DNA of 54,492 nt, the filler included, from Squatina squatina (lineage: Eukaryota): assembly GCA_031763465.1 (NCBI GenBank). It is 3 parts of 3 records of this genome, joined end to end, with 100 filler letters (N's around TTAATTAATTAA, not from the genome) between each part and the next. Parts side by side here need not be neighbours in the genome. Positions count along the whole stretch, not along the records: positions 1 to 19,796 come from JARFOE010000115.1; 2 more parts are not named here. One strand, written 5' to 3'. Positions within the stretch are counted from its first letter, which is position 1, and each line of letters starts with the position of its first letter. The position numbers were made by a program, and so were the translations under genes. The notes below the pieces were generated by a model. The model worked only from the letters and a program-made list of their open reading frames with translations, made no database searches and was not told the origin of the DNA. Positions 470 to 52,465 of the stretch are shown here, piece after piece.

Positions 470-496
470 GTTTGTGTGTTAGATCTGCGGAAATAG
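470..496 (+). CDS. TBL1XR1: TBL1XR1 (TBL1 family WD40 co-repressor) terminal coding exon, VCVLDLRK*
   Basis: Acceptor ttttctcttaaag|GTT TGT GTG TTA GAT CTG CGG AAA TAG is the TBL1X/TBL1XR1 C-terminus. The following UTR matches my recall of the human TBL1XR1 3'UTR, and a convergent NAALADL2 in the same block fits TBL1XR1 rather than TBL1X. Confidence 0.88.
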   Translation, partial: VCVLDLRK

Positions 497-6495: not shown

Positions 6496-6884
6496 ACTGA
6501 CAAAGTGAAGGCAAATACCTCAACACATCTACCCAAGCACTCCAATAACTGAATGAAGAGCAGACAGGTGAGTGAGAAATTGGCACAGTGTGCTTTCAAT
6601 ATATTCCTATTTGTGCTATGTACCTCACTCTAATTTTTCCTGTGTGGGAGTATGGGGATGAAGGAATACAAATCATTGCCTAATTTTCAGTTTGCACTCC
6701 TTATCGTCGGTGCAAAAAAAAAGCAAATATGCAAGAAACTCAACAGTCGTCCATGAAATGATGGATTCACCCAATAGCCAACTCTGCAACCTGTTGTCTG
6801 TCTTAAAGCACCTGGGAAGTGACACACTGGGACAGAATGAACATATTTGTGACAGGATCCTAGGAAAATAGCAAACAGATGGGT

Positions 6885-7140
6885 TGGGAAAACAAATATG
6901 GTGATCTGCCACCCTAAGCAAAGCAGCTGTCACCTGGCTTACACAATTAGATATGGTGGACGAGCTGAAGCCTGTGCTATCACCTGCAGGGCCCTGAAAA
7001 GTGCCAGAAGCATAGAAGGTAAGAGCAGCTGCCACCTTCACTGCTACTGGCAGGGCTGTTTCTAAATCAGCTCCCAACTCCTGACAGAGGTCAAGAACTG
7101 TTTGCTTCAATAACTGAAATCTTTTCAGACATTGGTTGTC
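6885..7140 (-). mobile_element. PIF/Harbinger transposase relic (N-terminal HTH region)
   Basis: DNQCLKRFQLLKQTVLDLCQELGADL..ALPVAVKVAAALTFYASGTFQ...STISNCVSQVTAAL...HICFP, typical of HARBI1-like transposases. Confidence 0.85.
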
Positions 7141-8356
7141 AGGTCAGGAACATATAATCAGAGCTGATACAGTCACAAAGGATGCAAGCACATCTACAAC
7201 TGCTTGACTTTTTATTTGTATTCTGCCTCTCTGACACATGAAAGAAGAAATCCATCTTCTTGTGTTGTGCAGCATTTTTGTTACCCAAATCTGATTTTAG
7301 CTGGTGAATTTGTTTATGAAATTGTAATAGAAGATTGAAAGCACTGGGCAAATTGGCTGCTAATATCCCACAATTAATATAAGCAATTACACAAAGATGG
7401 CCATGGGCTTGCAAATATGAGCATAAATCCTAATTTCTGATTGTGCATACACCAGTTATGTTTACATATTTGCAAATAATGATCACACATTTCACACCAA
7501 ATTGAAATGAAGTCCTGAAAGCTTCAGCCTCGAGAAACATTTTGTATGGATTTCTGACAGGGTTTTTAGATTCCCAGGCTCTAATCACAATAAATGGAAT
7601 AGTACATGGTTCATACCCTTTGATTTTCTCTCCTTATTTTACCCCTTTTTGTTCCTCCCCACCTCTCGAAGGCTGGGGTACAGTACCACTGGCAGCAGGC
7701 GCCCTTCAGTACCAACCCCAAGTCTCCGTTCTCGATGCGTCAACAGGTCACTTGGCCTTGAACAGCATCACAACTGAGCATTATGAGAAACAATGGTATC
7801 GCAGCTAATTACTGGGAAAACAGAAGCATCATGAATAATTTCATTCAGAAACCCACAACTATTGGACATATTCCAAGATATTGTGTGAATCTGAGCAAGA
7901 AGCAAGTACTGCACTGAAGTCATGGTAAGAAGTTATAGCTGTGCAGCAAATGGTAAATTTACTGATCCTACACTCTCAGTGGGAGCTGCACTCAGAGGGA
8001 GCATTAGTCGAAGAATTGGGCTGGAGTAATCTAGCCCTATCTCTGACCCACCCTACCTCGAAGCGTGGGTCCTCATTGAAAACACAGGGTTTGTTAAGTT
8101 ACCCATAAATCTCTGTGAGAAACAGTATTGTGGCAAGCCACTGCAAGATGAATGAGCATCACAGTGAGCGGCTGAGAAACCAGATTGTCCCAATGACAGA
8201 TGGCAAAGCTCTGAGATATGAGCCCTCATCATCATCAGAAATAAGAATAACGTGTAAAATTGTGAAGAGATTAATTACTGTAAGAAACTGGAACACTGCA
8301 GAAAACTGCAGCAGGAAACAAGATCATAGAAAATACTTTTGAGGGCATAAGCTCAT

Positions 8357-9864: not shown

Positions 9865-10002
9865 GCTTCCAAAGATATATTAGAGTATATGATTATGTAG
9901 CCGGGTTCCACCTGATGTGTGACAGGCATGCTGGTGTTCAAGCCTCCGTCTAAAACTTTCCGCAGAGACGTCTGGGGAACAATGTCCAACACAGCCCAAC
10001 AC
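9865..10002 (-). CDS. 138-nt internal exon of putative Trp/Tyr-permease-like amino-acid transporter
   Basis: Acceptor cctttcttttgtag|, donor |gtgagt, phase 2-2, single open frame CWAVLDIVPQTSLRKVLDGGLNTSMPVTHQVEPGYIIIYSNISLE; joins in frame to exon 13136-13200. Confidence 0.75.
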
Positions 10003-10443
10003 CTACAAAAGAAAGGTAACAGAGATTAATTACTAATCTAAAGTTCTTTAGATTTACCACAATCACCTCAAACACCAAATGCGAAGACCCAATGATTCAG
10101 AATATCTGTGCTGCTGCCTCCATTGCTTTGAATCCAGCGTACTAACCATTTCACATGCATTATCAGGCACGATTAAATTTAACCCAAAGCTTCGACAGAA
10201 ACAGTTTGAGATAGAAGGTAACAGAGGAAGGGGAAGAGACAACAAATTGAGTAGAGAAACGAGAGTTGAGAGAGATTACTGAGAGACAGAAAAGAGTTTA
10301 AAGAGACAGGGATAAGAGAGGAGTTTGAGAGAATGAATGGTTGNNNNNNNNNNNNNNNNNNNNNNNNNNNNNNNNNNNNNNNNNNNNNNNNNNNNNNNNN
10401 NNNNNNNNNNNNNNNNNNNNNNNNNNNNNNNNNNNNNNNNNNN

Positions 10444-10785
10444 CCGGCAAAATTCCAGCCACAATGTGAGTTAGGATATAGGTATCAGAGTCTTGGATGA
10501 GCTGAAGTTTACAGTGGTTGGAGGATGGGGGCTAGCCAGGAGAGAATAGGAATAGTCAAGTGTGGAGGTGATAAAGGCATGGATGAAGGTATCAGTGGCA
10601 GATGGGCTAAGCAGGGGCAGAGACAGACAATGTTATGGAGGGGGAAGTACGCTGTTTTTGTGAAAAGAGTGTATATGGGGCTGGAACCTCAGTTCGGTGT
10701 TGAAAAGGATGCTGAGTTTGTTAACAGCCTGGTTCAATCTGAGACAGTGCCGGAGAGGTGGTTGGAATCGGTGATGAGAGTAGAG
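10444..10785 (-). mobile_element. L2 LINE ORF2 3' fragment
   Basis: Minus strand reads YFPLHNIVCLCPCLAHLPLIP then IHAFITSTLDYSYSLLAS, a frameshifted form of the L2 'LIHAFVTSRLDYCN' motif. Confidence 0.75.
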
Positions 10786-12654
10786 TTTATGAACTGGGGT
10801 GGAGGGCGAATGCACTACATACCTATCTATTCTATGTGATGGGCTGACCAGAGATCCCTCCCAAGATGCTACAGAACATTCAATAGAAACAGTGCCTTTT
10901 AGGGAGATGAGGTTTCATTGTTAGTTTGGAAAATTCCAACAGCAACCAATGCAGAACGAATTGCTCATATAGGTCTAGATTCTAACTACTCAAGGCAGAT
11001 GACCCCCTATAACTCTGTAGCTCTGGTTCTCTGACCTGTGCTTGCTTCTAGTGAGGCTGAGCACTGTCAGTGGAGCCTCAAAAAGATAACCGTTTTAAGT
11101 ACAGTTCTTGTATTTTTTTAAAAAAACTATTGGTTTTGAGAACAGTTTTGCTTAAGAATTATTCTGTCTGTTTATCTTTAGAACATGTTTAATTTTCAAC
11201 CATGTCAGCATATTATTATTCCAGACACAAAGGCACAAAATACAGTACTTGGGAAGTGATTGACTACAAAATGTAAAACCAACAGCTGTAATCATTATCT
11301 TGACAAATTGTATTTTCCGGTTCCTTTGCAGAGCTGATAAATGTAACAATAAATATCTAATGGAAGGTGAGTACTGCTGGAAATAATCCAGCCTTTTTGT
11401 TGTTTTGTAACCAAAGGACTCATCCATCTCACTTACACAAACCTTTTAGTTAAAGTAAACCATCAATCTGGAAAATATTCAAATTCACCTCCCATCACAA
11501 AGATAAAATTATCCATTGATCTATGCTCCATGTAACTTAATATGAGCATGAAAAAAAAATCATTGCCAGACCTAATTAGAATCTATATTTAATATCAGAG
11601 ACCACCTGCAGAGATCTGAGATCCTGGCAACCGACAAGCATGTGTGTGTGACCAATTTAAGACCTTTGGAAGTGACATTAATAAATAACAGACAAATGCT
11701 GATGGTAAATGTGGATAGAATAGAAAGGCCTATCAAAGTCCACTAAAAGCTTCATTACTAAAAAATGACATTCAGCAATAACAATGTGTGGCTAGTCACA
11801 ACTGATGGTTAAAAAATAGGAAACCGAATTGCCTGTAAATGTTGAAAACCATTAATGGATCCAGATTGTGGCATACACTGCTTTTGTAAGGGCAAATCCA
11901 AACTGTAAGTTTGCTGAAGTCCCGCGAATGTTTCAATCAGAGGATCATGTCAGAGTCAAATCGTGTGAAGTTGACGCCTCTAAAACAAACATGATGCTTC
12001 CTTGAAGTGCATTGAAAGCAAAAATCGTGTCTTGTTCACAAAGCTTTCTAGGCATCCCATTAATCCATTCCCCAAGGCGGATTTCCACCACGGCACTAAT
12101 AGGTTGTGGCCCTGGATAAAGTATAAGTGAGTAACACGGGCTGTAAATCAACAGTGAAGAGATCGAACCCTACTCAGGACGAACAGCTTCTGTTTCAAAC
12201 CAAAATTCCACCCGATGCAATGATAATCTGACCTCTTCCTCATTTTGCCAAGCCTGATTAATGGCTGCATCTTAGGGGGTTTATTTTCAAAGGGCTGTTT
12301 GTTGCAAACATCTTTTGTAAAAGCATTTGAAGCAAGCTTGTTATTTTTAAACCTACCAGCTGTCTGTCGGCAAAACCCTGGTACAGGTTTGATACCAAGA
12401 ACAGACTGACACAGAACAAAAGCAACACTGTGGACTTCAAACTGGCGTCTTTAACCAATTTTCTTATTCCTGTTTCAACTTGTCATGAAAACATCACACA
12501 AAGTGAACATTGTAACTATGAACACTCACTGAAAACTTGTCTTTCTTTTTCTATCTGTACGGTTGACTCAGCCCCTTTCTCACTCCTTATTTTATCTACA
12601 TCTCCCTCATCTTGCACCTTACTCTCTTCAGGCTCAACTCCTCTTTGGGACACA

Positions 12655-12730
12655 GAAAACATAGAAAATAGGAGCAGGAGTAGGCCATTCGGCCCTTCGA
12701 GCCTGCTCCGCCATTCAATATGATCATGGC
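12655..12730 (-). mobile_element. CR1 LINE 3' tail
   Basis: CATAGAAAATAGGAGCAGGAGTAGGCCATTCGGCCCTTCGAGCCTGCTCCGCCATTCAAT; same tail at 19437, 22503 (+), 41592 and 53230. Confidence 0.85.
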
Positions 12731-13135
12731 NNNNNNNNNNNNNNNNNNNNNNNNNNNNNNNNNNNNNNNNNNNNNNNNNNNNNNNNNNNNNNNNNNNNNN
12801 NNNNNNNNNNNNNNNNNNNNNNNNNNNNNNTATCTAGGCCGTACACTTGTTGTAGTCTCAACATTGCGTCATACAACAAGATGTACACAAAAACAGTAAC
12901 TGATAATGTGTTTGAAGTTTAAACAGCTAAGATCCCAGGAAAGAAGTATTTTTGTCACTATTTCATCTTTATCCCAAATATATATTTTTTAAAAAAGCAT
13001 TGCCACTATATAAACCTCAGTGTTTCTGACAGGGGCCGTGTTACACTTATGTGGTGTGTTAGTAGACAATAAAACCTGTAGTTGCTTCAAAAATATAATA
13101 TTTCAGTTTCACACAAGCATTATTTGAAGGCCTAC

Positions 13136-13200
13136 CAGAGAATATTCAGTATAGCACAAGTAGTGAGTCCTCCAGTGACAGCTCGGCGGAACCACATTAC
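13136..13200 (-). CDS. 65-nt internal exon of putative Trp/Tyr-permease-like transporter (VMWFRRAVTGGLTTCAILNIL)
   Basis: Long pyrimidine tract ttctttttcttttcttgtgtaag|, donor TG|gtaggc, phase 0 to 2; TG+G completes Trp with exon 9865-10002. Confidence 0.75.
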
Positions 13201-14820: not shown

Positions 14821-15010
14821 ACAGTGGTCCCAGTACTGAGTCTTGTGGAACACTACCATCCACCTTCTGCCACTGTGAATAGCTACCGTTTTAACCCCTA
14901 CTCTCTGCTTTCGGTTTTGAAGCCAGCTAGCTATCCAATCTGCTACTTGTTCCCTGACTCTGCATTCTCTGATCTTGTTCATCAGTCTATTATGGGGCAC
15001 CTTATCAAAT
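14821..15010 (-). mobile_element. CR1 LINE reverse transcriptase fragment
   Basis: FDKVPHNRLMNKI...WIASWLQNRKQRVGV and SVPQDSVLGPL (RT motifs), frameshifted. Confidence 0.9.
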
Positions 15011-15935
15011 TGTTTGCACAAAGTCTGTGGAAGTGGCATGTTTAATAGGCTGGAAAGGCTTTTCTCATTTTATTCTTTTGACTATATTCTCTGATTTTGT
15101 TTCCATGGGAATAGTTTGACAAGAAGCTCAAGGAGCAACCAAATTGAGACCCCAGAGAAAGAAATACACTTATTTTGGCACAGTATTTGATTGTGTAAAT
15201 CATAATCTCATCAGATACCCTCAAGCTTAAAGTGATTGTCAAGCTTAATAGATGTGGCAAACATTAAAATCATCAGATAAAAAGTTCCATTTTGACAGTT
15301 TGATCAGATTTCGTCTGGAGGGAAACTTATCCTTAAAGCAAAATATATACGCAGGGGTAGAATTCTGAGCTGGGATACACCCCTCCAGAAATACCTCCAA
15401 TGTGCACTGGTACAAGTCAATTTGATTTTTTTTTTGAAGAATGCAGCATAATTATAAAACCATTTCAAATGTTAGCATTTTTTTTACATAATTGTCTTAT
15501 AAGTCATAGATTCCACTTATTGACTACATGATAAGTACCTCACAGCATTTCCATTAGATAAATTGAGTTGGAATTAAAAAAGTTATATATAGTTGTGCAG
15601 GGATGCAGCCATAATACTGTAGTGGTGATGTTGCCAAAGGCACATTAAAAATAAGTATTATTCCTGATATTTCAAGGGTCTCCATGCAGTTGCACAGAGA
15701 CTGCTATACAGTAGAACTTACATTGGTTCAATTAATTGAAACAGCTTTTTAAACATGTCCTTTGGCTATCATAAAATTAGTCAGTATAAAATGAATTACT
15801 GTGAAATATATGAAATCAAATTAAAACATTCATGTNNNNNNNNNNNNNNNNNNNNNNNNNNNNNNNNNNNNNNNNNNNNNNNNNNNNNNNNNNNNNNNNN
15901 NNNNNNNNNNNNNNNNNNNNNNNNNNNNNNNNNNN

Positions 15936-38723: not shown

Positions 38724-39122
38724 GTGATGGAGATTAAGGGACAAATGATTTATGTACCTGAATCAAACTCTGTTCTTTTCCTGGGCTCGCCATGTGTTGA
38801 CAAACTGGAGGAGTTAATGGGACGAGGTTTACATCTTTCGGACATACCCATCCATGATGCTACTCGCGATGTTATTTTAGTAGGCGAACAGGCTAAGGCC
38901 CAGGATGGCCTGAAGAAACGCATGGACAAATTGAAAGCAACCCTTGAAAAAGCACACCAAGCCTTGGAGGAAGAGAAGAAGAAGACAGTGGACTTACTTT
39001 ATTCGATCTTCCCGGGTGATGTTGCCCAACAACTGTGGCAGGGAAAATCAATGCAGGCGAGAAAATTTGATGATGTTACCATGCTTTTCTCTGACATTGT
39101 TGGCTTCACAGCTATTTGTGCG
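38724..39122 (+). CDS. GUCY1A2: GUCY1A2 PAS/coiled-coil/cyclase-start exon (truncated at scaffold end)
   Basis: tctttcttcttag|[71 protein letters not shown]...[16 protein letters not shown]. Confidence 0.97.
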
Positions 39123-42971: not shown

Positions 42972-43700
42972 CTCTGCCGAGTACTGCAGGGCTCTTCCAG
43001 ACTGGTCCAGGCAGCAAAAGCGTTGTTTCAACATGCCAGTGGTCTGCTCTATGACATTTTGTGTGGCAACATGGTTTCTTTGTATGCCTGAGTTGCGCAG
43101 CAGACTCATGAGCCATGTCGTCAACAGACAGCCCTTGTCGCCCAGTAGCCACCCTTTGGTTTGTCGTGGTGGCTCAATTGTAGATGGCACAGTGGACTCT
43201 TGCAGAATGAGGGCATCATGAATTCTGACAGGATAATGGGCATTGACCTGCATGATTCACTGTGTATGGTCGCACACCAGCTGGATATTGAGGAAATTGA
43301 ATCTCTTTTGGTTGTGATACACGTCAGCTTGGACATGCACTGCCTGCAATGAGACGTACGTGCAGCCAATGGCACCCTACGCCATCGGGAAGCCTGTAAT
43401 CCTCGCGAAGCTGTGTGCTCCCTGGCAAGAGAGAATGAAATGTAGTCAGCTCTTTGGAATAGAGAGCCTCAGTGACCTATCTTATGCAATAGTGGAGGGC
43501 AAACTGCGAGATTTTTCAAATATCTTCAGCTCCAGCCTAGAAGGAGCTAGATGCGTTAAAGTTCATGGCCACAGTCACCTGCACAGCCACTGGGACTGCA
43601 GTTGTCGCCCTGCTCTGAGGTGACAGTTTTGGCTGCAGCAGATAGCAGATTTCAGTGAGGATGTCCTTAGTGAAGCGCAGACATCTGACAAACTCTTCCT
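42972..43700 (-). mobile_element. PIF/Harbinger transposase relic (DDE core)
   Basis: QVNAHYPVRIHDALIL...GWLLGDKG...VIEQTTGMLKQRFCCLDQSGRALQYS; upstream FARITGFP; frameshifted. Confidence 0.9.
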
Positions 43701-45035
43701 NNNNNNNNNNNNNNNNNNNNNNNNNNNNNNNNNNNNNNNNNNNNNNNNNNNNNNNNNNNNNNNNNNNNNNNNNNNNNNNNNNNNNNNNNNNNNNNNNNNN
43801 ACCATAGGAGGCATTTAACTTGCTAAAATATTTTACTGAAGCACTATAAATTTCGAATGTGTTGGATAATTATAATCTACTATTGTAATAGCCTTGTTAA
43901 GTTTCTGGGATCCAAGTACATTTGCAATTTATCATTCTTCTTGTCGCGATTGCTAATAGGTTTGCTTATTCATTTATTTCCTTCATGTCATTTAAGTCCT
44001 TCATTCTGCCAAGCTCCATTTTCCTGCTGCACATTTTTCCTGCTTTTCTGCGTGGATGGATTACTGGGCAACATGTTGATCAGTTGTGGTCCAGCGTTGA
44101 CCTAGCAAACAATCCAATCCTTCAAACAGATCTTTGTATCATGTAAATCTTCGATGCTGTAACCCCAATAATAACTGGGGGCCAGTTTTCAGTGGGTGAG
44201 TTTTTGTGTCAGCTCAAAACTAACCCGCTGCGGCAAAAAAAGAGGCTCGTGGTATTTTAGCTCCCGGGCCTCATTTAAATGCCGCAGACAGAATGAGGGA
44301 TTCGATGGAAATCAGTGCAAAATCGTGAGTTGCAGAGGCTGGCAGGTAAGTGCGCAGAATCCACTGCCGAGCCATTCCGGGAGGGTCCCTGTGATCGGTG
44401 AGTGGTGGAGGAGGGGAAATTATAACAGGGTGACCTAAAATTTCTTCATGGTTTTAAAAGCAAAGAGAAAAAATATTTTTTAACCATGAAGGGGCCCCAA
44501 TTGGAGTGGCCCGAAACGGGCCGAAGCATTCGGGGCCACACAGCCGAGGATGCGCTCCGCCGGCAGCGGGTTTCCAGGATGCGGCCTTGGTGACTTTGTT
44601 ACCGTTCTGGGTCAGTGTAGCGTTGGAATGCGAAACCAACGTTGACACGGCGCTGACCCAGCACTGACCCGGTCAATGCCGCGTCACTGCCAGGTTGCGC
44701 AAGCCACAACCCCNNNNNNNNNNNNNNNNNNNNNNNNNNNNNNNNNNNNNNNNNNNNNNNNNNNNNNNNNNNNNNNNNNNNNNNNNNNNNNNNNNNNNNN
44801 NNNNNNNNNNNNNGAACTGAGTTGCCCGTGCTTCAAGGGACAGAATATAAGGGCCTGAGGGCCATAAGTAGCCCTGGAACCTCTGGTTGAACATTGCTGG
44901 CTTCTTCCTATTCTCTCTAAAGGAGGTTCCCTAATCAGGCAATTGTTCTGTTCACAGAATCTCAACATGCTATTCAGAGCAGTTGTACTTTTATTTAACT
45001 GATGTTCACTGGCTTGTATCTGCTTGTATTTGCAG

Positions 45036-45211
45036 CTTTGAGAAGCCATTTTGGCCAACCTATCATTAACGGAGACTGGGCCATAGATAGGCCAGGCTCT
45101 TATGAAGCTGCAGGAACCGTGTTCAAGTACAAGAGGCCAAATGAGATCAGTACTACAGCAGGGGAATCCTTCATTGCTGAGGGGCCAACCAGTGAAATTC
45201 TGGACGTCTAT
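45036..45211 (+). CDS. THSD4: THSD4 (ADAMTSL6) spacer-domain exon (176 nt)
   Basis: ttgtatttgcag|(A)LRSHFGQPIINGDWAIDRPGSYEAAGTVFKYKRPNEISTTAGESFIAEGPTSEILDVY|gtaagt; matches recalled THSD4 YKRPNEISSTAGESFLAEGPTNEILDVY. Confidence 0.88.
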
Positions 45212-50443: not shown

Positions 50444-50882
50444 ATGGAGGAACTGGGGCTGGCGGTACTGCTGCTGCTGGTCGGGGCGGAGTGGGGGCCG
50501 GCAGTGCGGGCTGAGTGCGGCCGCTGCGAGCCCACCTCCTGCCCGGCCGTGCAGTGCAAAGTGCCCGAGCTCTTGGCCAAGGACGAGTGCGGCTGCTGCG
50601 GCCGCTGCCTGGGCACCCAGGGCGAGCTGTGTGGGGGCGAGCGGCTGAGGCACGGCCGCTGTGCCCCGGGCTACGTGTGCCTGACCTCGGCGGACGGGCA
50701 GGAGGCGGAGGAGAAGGCGGAGGAGGGCACCGGCTCCTGCGTGTGCAAGCACGACTACCCGGTGTGCGGCTCCGACGGCGGTACCTACCCCACCATCTGC
50801 GCCCTGCACCTGGCCAGCTGGCTCTCCGCGCACCGGCTGGAGGGCAAGATCCACAAGGCGCACGATGGGGAGTGTAAATACG
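50444..50882 (+). CDS. IGFBP7/IGFBPL1-family secreted protein, exon 1 (signal peptide, IGFBP and Kazal domains)
   Basis: Hydrophobic leader LAVLLLLVG; DECGCCGRC IGFBP motif; PVCGSDGGTYPTIC Kazal motif; ends KAHDGECKY G|gtaaga (phase 1); CpG-rich. The ATG sits at a contig edge, so the true start may be upstream. Confidence 0.92.
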
Positions 50883-52080: not shown

Positions 52081-52355
52081 NNNNNNNNNNNNNNNNNNNN
52101 NNNNNNNNNNNNNNNNNNNNNNNNNNNNNNNNNNNNNNNNNNNNNNNNNNNNNNNNNNNNNNNNNNNNNNNNNNNNNNNNTATGCCAACAATGACTTTTT
52201 TTTAATGTTCAGTAGTACCAACTTAAGGTGAATAATTATCATATGAGGCTCTCCCTCCATTGCTGGTCACAGGAGAGCTAACCTCCGATGCTGGTCCTCT
52301 CTTTGAGTAAGTGCTAACAACAGAGAATCTAAATTTACGTTTTTTTCTTCTGCAG

Positions 52356-52465
52356 CTCCAGTCATTGTGACACAGCCTCAGGAGATCTGGAATGTCAGTG
52401 GATCCCAAGTTTACCTTACGTGTGAAGTTATTGGAGTACCTACTCCTGTACTCACCTGGAATAAG
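52356..52465 (+). CDS. IGFBP7/IGFBPL1-family protein, exon 2 (Ig domain start, 110 nt)
   Basis: ttttttcttctgcag|(A)PVIVTQPQEIWNVSGSQVYLTCEVIGVPTPVLTWNK|gttagc; phase matches exon 1. Confidence 0.92.

Follow-up and report, generated by a model that had tools for sequence, protein, structure and literature searches.

The window, a stretch of 54,492 nucleotides (filler included) from Squatina squatina, contains two minus-strand coding exons of a transporter gene, joined by an intron and flanked by the last coding exons of two other genes.

470-496, plus strand: TBL1XR1-like last coding exon, 8 residues and a stop after a pyrimidine-rich AG; presumably TBL1XR1, judged by its C-terminus, and too short for a database test
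10002-9865, minus strand: exon B, 138 coding nt, phases 2 to 2 (symmetric), acceptor ending GTAG, donor GTGAGT
10003..13135, minus strand: intron (GT...AG), 2933 called bases plus 200 N, with scaffold gaps at 10344-10443 and 12731-12830 (100 N each)
13200-13136, minus strand: exon A, 65 coding nt, phases 0 to 2, pyrimidine-rich acceptor ending in AG, donor GTAGGC
18309-18099, minus strand: NAALADL2-like last coding exon, upstream of the transporter and on the same strand; presumably NAALADL2, judged by its C-terminus

Both exons are confirmed as real by canonical splice sites, matching phase, consecutive orthologue stretches and boundaries that coincide with gaps in public isoform models; the splice sequences and the orthologue match bear out an earlier note, which had proposed two spliced minus-strand exons here. 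Exon A encodes a basic cytosolic start and most of helix 7 (residues 296-317 of the Pristiophorus orthologue P0004), and exon B supplies the end of the helix, a conserved IVPQ and an exoplasmic loop with the sequons NTS and NIS, so that the basic patch, hydrophobic helix and two-sequon loop described in that note are helix 7 and the following loop in the P0004 model. The codon split at the junction (TG/G) specifies Trp and corresponds to W317 of P0004, which is invariant in 118 aligned homologues. Exon A is identical to residues 296-316 at 21/21 positions, consecutive with the stretch matched by exon B, which agrees with residues 318-363 at 39/46 positions and is one codon shorter than in other sharks. 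The two exons scored 50 and 80 bits in tblastn, compared with 26.9 for the best of 30 Markov-resampled windows, and a search for protein homologues, as the note had suggested, returned orthologues of exon B (45 residues) with E values down to 5.9e-14 and 70-85% identity in 12/12 matches. Chiloscyllium, Hemitrygon and Callorhinchus each have a public isoform model from which exactly residues 317-363, i.e., exon B, are missing; further public isoform gaps span 318-364, 202-317 and 243-295, and the end of the catfish gap at 295 marks the start of exon A.

Since two 100-N gaps separate the contig pieces that carry the exons, their join rests on homology rather than on continuous sequence, and the intron length given above is provisional. 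No further exons of the gene were found in the window with tblastn or with sliding 24-residue HMM pieces; the other HMM-piece matches (E 1.8e-4 to 0.04) lie on the plus strand, cover only 6-11 residues and were rejected as exons. A splice-site scan recovered neither exon at strict thresholds and exon B only at looser ones. Pfam searches gave no match to either exon, Rfam gave none, and the ESM Atlas returned no usable match for exon B.

The scaffold in the window is gap-ridden, comprising 42 pieces, and the flanking genes are as incomplete as the transporter. The NAALADL2-like exon had no informative match in Pfam or PDB searches. A chimeric sturgeon gene model (P0127) lends independent support to the adjacency of the transporter to NAALADL2: it fuses the transporter to cadherin repeats and to an M28B-peptidase-like part (E 4.9e-7 to GCPII), and the M28B-peptidase-like gene lies upstream of the transporter on the same strand. 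Of the neighbourhood claimed earlier, the NAALADL2 side is thus favoured by this model, although the name of the flank in the window itself is provisional. That the exons belong to a decaying pseudogene, or to contigs mis-scaffolded from a site other than between TBL1XR1 and NAALADL2, is very improbable. Such a reading could point to only two exons, on separate pieces of the 42-piece scaffold, and to the missing codon of exon B; however, the frames are open, the splice sites intact and the identities high (21/21 and 39/46), the deletion is in frame within a variable loop, and the exons lie in the correct order and strand. The flanks are also equally incomplete, and the sturgeon arrangement speaks against this reading too.

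Orthologues and phylogenetic spread

The two exons almost certainly belong to the shark si:ch211-51h4.2 orthologue, a secondary transporter of ~560 residues with 11 helices and a LeuT/APC fold. This gene is already annotated as an 'uncharacterized protein' in RefSeq/UniRef, in sharks, rays, chimaera and ray-finned fish, and the window adds only an ordinary orthologue; its description as a hidden gene does not hold, as orthologues are annotated in many sharks and bony fish. The orthologues of cartilaginous and ray-finned fish are the same gene with the same exon boundaries, and the window gene differs from them only by species and by its one-codon deletion. Names of homologues exclude a transposon or a known SLC, the outcomes that would have spoken against the transporter proposed in the note.

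The family is unnamed, uncharacterized and SLC-like, and it forms its own eukaryotic clade extending from amoebae, jakobids and sponges to fish; shark proteins share about 45% identity with those of molluscs and about 35% with those of protists. The uncharacterized fish and invertebrate homologues mentioned in the earlier note do exist, but the gene is not a vertebrate one, as the note had supposed. No paper naming or studying si:ch211-51h4.2 or its family was found in the literature searched. The PF03222 literature found included nothing about an animal protein, and literature on SLC38, SLC36 and the amphioxus clade yielded nothing on this family; one passage of PMC6019070 on 'tyrosine-specific transport' has an alga as its subject.

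No coelacanth, lungfish or tetrapod occurs in the best 120 of 297 homologues, or among the 107 species-labelled rows in the best 120 of 351; zebrafish and gar are also missing from both lists, and absence was judged from these protein match lists. Further representatives of the vertebrate clade placed on the tree all fall among sharks or ray-finned fish. Because ray-finned fish keep the gene and no lobe-finned fish or tetrapod is among the matches listed, any loss probably predates mammals, and the earlier scenario of a gene retained in sharks and lost in mammals probably misplaces the event. Carriers among the matches listed are all aquatic, with the exception of the land snail Bradybaena, which rules out a strict 'aquatic-only' gene, and no crustacean is among them. 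Humans, mice, flies and worms all appear to lack the family, which would account for its neglect.

Predicted fold, mechanism and alternatives

The fold was modeled with AlphaFold on the full-length orthologue P0004, not on the incomplete window gene. The model, based on 118 sequences (pLDDT 86.9, pTM 0.87), replaced an earlier one from 38 mostly fish sequences (pLDDT 58). In it, 11 helices cross the membrane; helices 1 and 6 are broken, and helix 7, encoded by exons A and B, spans 293-324. The predicted structure is a LeuT/APC fold in which helices 1 and 6 are unwound, in agreement with the fold anticipated earlier. The top VIA-align matches were SLC7A10 (Z 32.0, rmsd 3.3, 384 aligned), LAX3 (Z 31.9, 3.2, 389), AUX1 (Z 30.9, 3.3, 391) and ApcT (Z 30.1, 3.2, 377), and SLC38A9 scored lower (Z 24.1, 3.7, 327). 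Foldseek gave a probability of 1.00, and in a wide structural search 44 of 48161 chains reached Z>=8, all of APC/LeuT type, the next value being 7.2. SLC36, SLC32 and TyrP-type chains are not among the structural matches listed, which excludes nothing. When the two family profiles were searched against PDB sequences, no match was found at E<=10.

We propose, with a probability of roughly 0.6, that the protein is a sodium-independent APC amino-acid transporter. It would very probably operate by alternating access, the amino and carboxyl groups of the substrate binding to unwound helix 1 (LGTGILGLP) and helix 6 (TVALGG); the GTG motif of helix 1 is nearly invariant. T232 and K235 are found in 108/108 sequences, and S401 and S405 in 107/108. 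A passage in PMC6472337 places the helix-5 lysine of BasC (K154), ApcT (K158) and GkApcT (K191) at the Na2 site and reports it as needed for transport. K235, in helix 5, is assigned to this site by sequence alignment and not by superposed structures; there, the invariant lysine probably stands in for the second sodium ion, touching helix 1 as well as the invariant serines of helix 8, which would allow transport without a need for sodium. Proton symport is the likeliest driving force, though no more than an even chance, by analogy with TyrP, Mtr and TnaB, which are annotated as H+ symporters. The lysine itself does not show proton coupling, since LATs that carry it are exchangers according to the same source (PMC6472337).

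The protein may, with slightly less confidence, reside in endosomes or lysosomes, its likeliest location, and export to the cytosol the neutral amino acids released by protein digestion; the glycosylated loop of exon B would then face the lumen, and aromatic specificity is a doubtful guess. The loop after helix 7 has at least one sequon in 41/41 fish and 36/39 invertebrates. The acidic cytosolic loop 2-3 carries DxxLL in 40/41 fish and 0/39 invertebrates, and the 1.8 matches expected from shuffles overstate the enrichment because the 40 fish matches represent one inherited event. Such DxxLL motifs usually act close to C-termini. The classical lysosomal motif [DE]xxxL[LI] is not enriched in this loop (0/41 in fish; 3/39 in invertebrates, with 3.9 expected). 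A link to lysosome-rich enterocytes found no support in the searched supplements of zebrafish gut papers, where the string '51h4' is absent from 8 files of PMC11906160 and 5 files of PMC12714231.

An unlikely alternative is a LAT-like, sodium-independent exchanger or uniporter of the plasma membrane, for instance one that serves the epithelia of gut, kidney, gill or skin in aquatic animals. The LAT helix-6 motif resembles the xGG of the family, and the leading structural matches include SLC7A10, BasC and LAT1 (Z 28-32). LATs also use the same helix-5 lysine (PMC6472337), and the carriers among the matches listed are aquatic bar one land snail, yet that snail, Bradybaena, keeps the gene and crustaceans show none among those matches. 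Moreover, the family has 11 helices, not 12, the fish proteins carry the acidic-dileucine loop, and the E. coli APC group profile reaches 1.3% versus 92% for the TyrP group.

Less likely still is an APC carrier for a non-standard substrate (an aromatic or indole acid, as for AUX1/LAX, an amine or a vitamin) or a sensor resembling SLC38A9. LAX3 and AUX1, also with ~11 helices, share the top Z value, helix 6 carries a motif specific to the family that has V273 where an aromatic gate residue would stand, and the long acidic cytosolic loop could bind partners; against this, the nearly invariant helix-1 GTG is typical of amino-acid binding, and in sequence the family matches models of amino-acid permeases best.

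The preferred sodium-independent amino-acid transporter can be extended to a joint reading that is tentative and has the odds against it. The family would be ancient, separate from SLC7/32/36/38 and TMEM104 from early eukaryotes on, and would act as a proton-driven, sodium-independent amino-acid exporter in the phagolysosomes of cells that digest food internally. It would have been kept in fish, amphioxus, echinoderms and spiralians and lost in the lobe-finned/tetrapod line and apparently in arthropods and nematodes, leaving the protein-gene-free human NAALADL2-TBL1XR1 interval; it would have escaped the SLC nomenclature because this was built on human genes. The significance of the family is modest, resting on strong conservation and a clear APC fold. 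Should the loss prove to have occurred at the base of lobe-finned fish or tetrapods, a metabolic gene would have disappeared near the water-to-land transition, and the event would give an age to some of the gene-poor region at human 3q26.3.

Comparison with known transporter families

On sequence comparison, the family is a remote relative of TyrP within its own eukaryotic clade. Among 14 E. coli transporters compared by HHalign, TyrP came closest (91.3%, E 9.5e-7, 365 columns), and the RRA..G...W pattern aligns with a TyrP helix, which agrees with the bacterial kinship suggested earlier. As groups, TyrP/Mtr/TnaB reached 92.2%, Ser/Thr 39.3% and APC 1.3%, with three unrelated controls at <=1.4%; as single proteins, Mtr and TnaB reached 2% and 5%, and hmmsearch could not tell TyrP apart from the controls. 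The helix-5 lysine of TyrP, which Mtr, TnaB, FrlA and AroP carry too, is aligned with K235.

Membership of the shark proteins in PF03222, also predicted in the earlier note, was not recovered: besides the lack of Pfam matches to the exons, 0/5 full-length shark proteins pass the cut-off of 22, and one partial sequence scores 21.5. A precomputed PF03222 label is attached to 14 of the best 120 homologues, and the scanned matches mostly cover helices 1-2. Family sequences match PF03222 in 20/38 cases, PF01490 in 18/38 (E<=0.01, best 2.3e-4) and TIGR00837 in 14/38; every PF01490 score shown (13.9-22.3) lies below the cut-off of 25.6, and one of the best 120 rows of 351 has a precomputed PF01490 label. 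Weak matches to Trp_Tyr_perm are also described for TMEM104, SLC38A7 and SLC38A8 in PMC9333335, the supplement of which includes a separate zebrafish tmem104. A passage in PMC13651907 describes a plant 11-helix protein with a PF03222 label as a tonoplast AVT6 orthologue, which indicates that these labels cross-match other families. With P0004 as the query, the ESM Atlas returned its own family (0.99) and, as leads, plant Trp/Tyr-permease-like (0.93), amoebozoan Aa_trans (0.93) and bacterial permease (0.91) proteins. A pattern scan of 185,579 genomes for prokaryotic relatives gave 25 matches, none confirmed, with vertebrate-derived patterns that reach close relatives only. The family could form a eukaryotic bridge between bacterial TyrP-type permeases and AAAP transporters.

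With TyrP/Mtr/TnaB (PF03222, TIGR00837), the family shares the helix-1 motif, the helix-5 lysine, the helix-8 xSF and an NPKGF that corresponds to YPRGF/FPNGF, and its profile aligns over the full length with TyrP. It differs in its identity of about 18%, a long acidic loop 2-3 and a glycosylated loop 7-8. The helix-6 signature SFG[FY]HGx[VI]P of 3/3 E. coli members is absent, the family having TVALGGxxNxMP; since SFG[FY]HG is replaced by TVALGG, the substrate is not transferable from TyrP. The AAAP transporters (SLC38, SLC36, SLC32, TMEM104, AVT6/AAT-Rhg1 and AUX1/LAX; PF01490) have 11 helices and the APC fold in common with the family, which is set apart by scores below the PF01490 cut-off and by the lower structural score of SLC38A9. 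SLC7/LAT, ApcT and BasC have the same fold at Z 28-32 and share the helix-5 lysine; in contrast to the family, they have 12 rather than 11 helices, with 11-15% identity and negligible similarity of the E. coli APC profile.

Exons, scaffold and flanking genes

The two exons from which the earlier note proposed a hidden Trp/Tyr-permease-like gene are genuine and form an intact-looking part of a gene that is known but uncharacterised, si:ch211-51h4.2 in fish.

13200-13136, minus strand: exon A, 65 nt; pyrimidine-rich AG acceptor, GTAGGC donor; phases 0-2
10002-9865, minus strand: exon B, 138 nt; pyrimidine-rich AG acceptor, GTGAGT donor; phases 2-2

The codon split between them encodes Trp, and each lies within a short open frame with stops near the splice sites at both ends. 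Compared with P0004, the full-length orthologue of the shark Pristiophorus, exon A corresponds to residues 296-316 (21/21 identical; 50 bits) and exon B to residues 318-363 (39/46; 80 bits); the best of 30 resampled windows reached at most 26.9 bits. As sole query, exon B found 12 proteins among 16 candidates, sharks only and mostly si:ch211-51h4.2. Three chondrichthyan isoforms lack exactly residues 317-363 of P0004 and other fish models break at 295/296 and 317/318, so public annotation independently has the same exon boundaries. Both exons are confirmed. The gene escaped the ORF track solely because its exons are short, and it is not hidden, being annotated already in dozens of genomes, to which the window contributes an orthologue. 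The exons lie on separate contig pieces, and no further exons of the gene were found in the window. Exon B, a symmetric cassette, is left out of isoforms annotated in Chiloscyllium, Hemitrygon and Callorhinchus; since the invariant W317 and PQ are removed, the skipped forms are probably inactive.

The window looks like a sparse, reference-ordered scaffold, with 42 sequence pieces of 12-3215 bases between N runs, mostly of 100, and with large genes each seen as just one or two exons; its distances and order are therefore unreliable.

470-496, plus strand: TBL1XR1-like terminal exon, 27 nt
18309-18099, minus strand: NAALADL2-like terminal exon, 69 codons
29725-30363 and 38724-39122, plus strand: soluble guanylate cyclase alpha-type exons with HNOB, HNOBA and cyclase domains
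45002-45205, plus strand: ADAM-TS spacer 1 domain exon of an ADAMTS or ADAMTS-like gene
50444-50881 and 52340-52465, plus strand: IGFBP, Kazal and Ig exons of a Kazald-type gene
42972-43256, minus strand: transposon fragment, DDE_Tnp_4 nuclease
6772-7143, minus strand: transposon fragment, presumably Harbinger-like (no Pfam match)
14821-15069, minus strand: transposon fragment, LINE reverse-transcriptase piece

The first two exons resemble the C-termini of TBL1XR1 and NAALADL2; both names are putative, and database searches confirmed neither. No soluble guanylate cyclase gene is known at human 3q26, and the window's cyclase is possibly a paralogue lost in mammals. The sturgeon (Acipenser ruthenus) model P0127 (RXM30515.1, named 'Protocadherin-16') is chimeric, running from an M28B-peptidase-like part (E 4.9e-7 against glutamate carboxypeptidase II) through about three cadherin repeats to the transporter; this order is the one expected if NAALADL2 lies upstream on the same strand, and it independently supports adjacency. 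The cadherin part of P0127 may mean that a gene of this type separates NAALADL2 from the transporter in sturgeon; in the window, no cadherin exon turned up. In human, TBL1XR1 is the gene closest to NAALADL2, according to PMC7429505.

Distribution and presumed loss

A search started from P0004 retained 297 proteins; the best 120, extending down to the scallop's score, comprise 22 cartilaginous-fish rows, 97 ray-finned-fish rows and one scallop; the ray-finned carriers among the matches listed range from bichir and sturgeons to teleosts. Searching with a profile built from 19 non-vertebrate members brought up 351 proteins (120 listed, 107 of them named) and added amphioxus, hemichordates, echinoderms, molluscs (including a land snail), nemerteans, an annelid, rotifers, an acoel and an anemone. 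From the 50%-cluster library came 539 matches (150 listed); among the 30 looked up are a sponge, Trichoplax, a bryozoan, Chromosphaera, the jakobid Stygiella, Rhizamoeba and Diplonema. The uncharacterised fish and invertebrate homologues mentioned in the earlier note do exist. In a tree of 119 rows (quick method, midpoint root), jawed vertebrates form one clade (support 100), nested in an animal-plus-ichthyosporean group (support 99), with many deeper eukaryotic branches; all vertebrate-clade fragments without a species name that were placed on it fall among sharks or ray-finned fish.

Two amphioxus proteins, P0301 and P0309 of Branchiostoma floridae, come from two loci (LOC118426809, LOC118426845) on a same-sized contig, which suggests a local duplication or a haplotype duplicate. 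Many non-animal members (P0186, P0194, P0221, P0227, P0245 and others) are 700-1200 residues long, with several hundred extra residues devoid of Pfam domains and, in one, leucine-rich repeats.

No coelacanth, lungfish, amphibian, reptile, bird or mammal, and no cyclostome, tunicate, arthropod or nematode, occurs among the matches listed; zebrafish and gar are likewise missing from the two lists of 120 proteins each. The simplest interpretation is that the gene was lost at or near the base of lobe-finned fish. The loss in mammals proposed in the earlier note is probably correct, yet too narrow, since no lobe-finned fish or other tetrapod is among the matches listed. Should the group prove to be an SLC family of its own, with a loss that can be dated to before tetrapods, that would be the more significant result.

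Fold, predicted mechanism and location

The P0004 model (118 sequences; pLDDT 86.9) has 11 membrane helices, with helix 1 broken at 53-55 and helix 6 at 277. All structural matches have the LeuT fold, led by SLC7A10 (Z 32.0), LAX3 (31.9), AUX1 (30.9) and ApcT (30.1), with rmsd 3.2-3.3 and 377-391 aligned; in a wide search, 44 of 48161 chains reached Z 8, the next score being 7.2. With identities of 7-15% and the leading matches tied or nearly so, structure does not single out a family. Exon A is modelled as most of helix 7, and exon B as the end of that helix together with the loop leading to helix 8. A cytosolic N-terminus is usual for the LeuT fold and, if assumed here, would make this loop exoplasmic, which its sequons fit; at least one is present in 41/41 fish, 36/39 invertebrates and 4/28 other eukaryotic or unnamed members.

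Together, the GTG motif of helix 1 and the break in helix 6 would form the backbone site for amino acids that this fold usually has. Helix 5 carries K235 and T232 in every sequence (108/108), and helix 8 carries S401 and S405 in 107/108. In the alignment, K235 falls on the TyrP helix-5 lysine, a residue also present in Mtr, TnaB, FrlA and AroP. The same lysine lies at the Na2 site of BasC, ApcT and GkApcT and is required for transport, according to PMC6472337; transport by the fish protein is therefore likely to be sodium-independent. Proton symport might be expected, as it is annotated for the closest relatives in bacteria; however, LAT exchangers carry the same helix-5 lysine. Endo-lysosomal export is weakly favoured by an acidic cluster with DxxLL in the cytosolic loop that joins helices 2 and 3 (40/41 fish, 0/39 invertebrates) and by the family's prevalence in organisms with intracellular food digestion, although there is no enrichment of the classical dileucine motif. 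The gut single-cell supplements searched do not mention the gene.

Relation to known transporter families

No curated model specific to the family occurs among the Pfam and NCBIfam matches, no solved structure related by sequence was found, and no paper on it appeared in the literature searched, where most subscription papers are missing; the gene name is absent from the five supplements of a systematic SLC survey covering zebrafish and PF03222 (PMC9333335). PF03222 labels attach also to TMEM104 and SLC38A7/8 (PMC9333335) and to a plant AVT6 orthologue (PMC13651907). The nearest curated models at E<=0.01 are PF03222 (20/38 members), PF01490 (18/38) and TIGR00837 (14/38), matching mostly through helices 1-2. 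Hmmsearch gave no separation among E. coli transporters and controls; HHalign aligned TyrP, among 14 E. coli transporters, end to end (91%, E 9.5e-7, 18% identity), followed by CyuP (14%), TnaB (5%) and Mtr (2%), with APC members and controls below 1.5%. In this alignment the RRA..G...W pattern, which the earlier note likened to a helix of the TyrP/Mtr permeases, is indeed placed on the corresponding helix of TyrP. The Trp_Tyr_perm assignment holds insofar as TyrP is the best of the E. coli set, and fails in that the helix-6 signature is missing and the shark proteins fall short of the PF03222 cut-off. Judged by sequence, the protein would work like a TyrP/AAAP-type permease and is not a TyrP/Mtr member: TyrP, Mtr and TnaB carry the helix-6 signature SFG[FY]HG, whereas the family described here has its own TVALGGxxNxMP instead.
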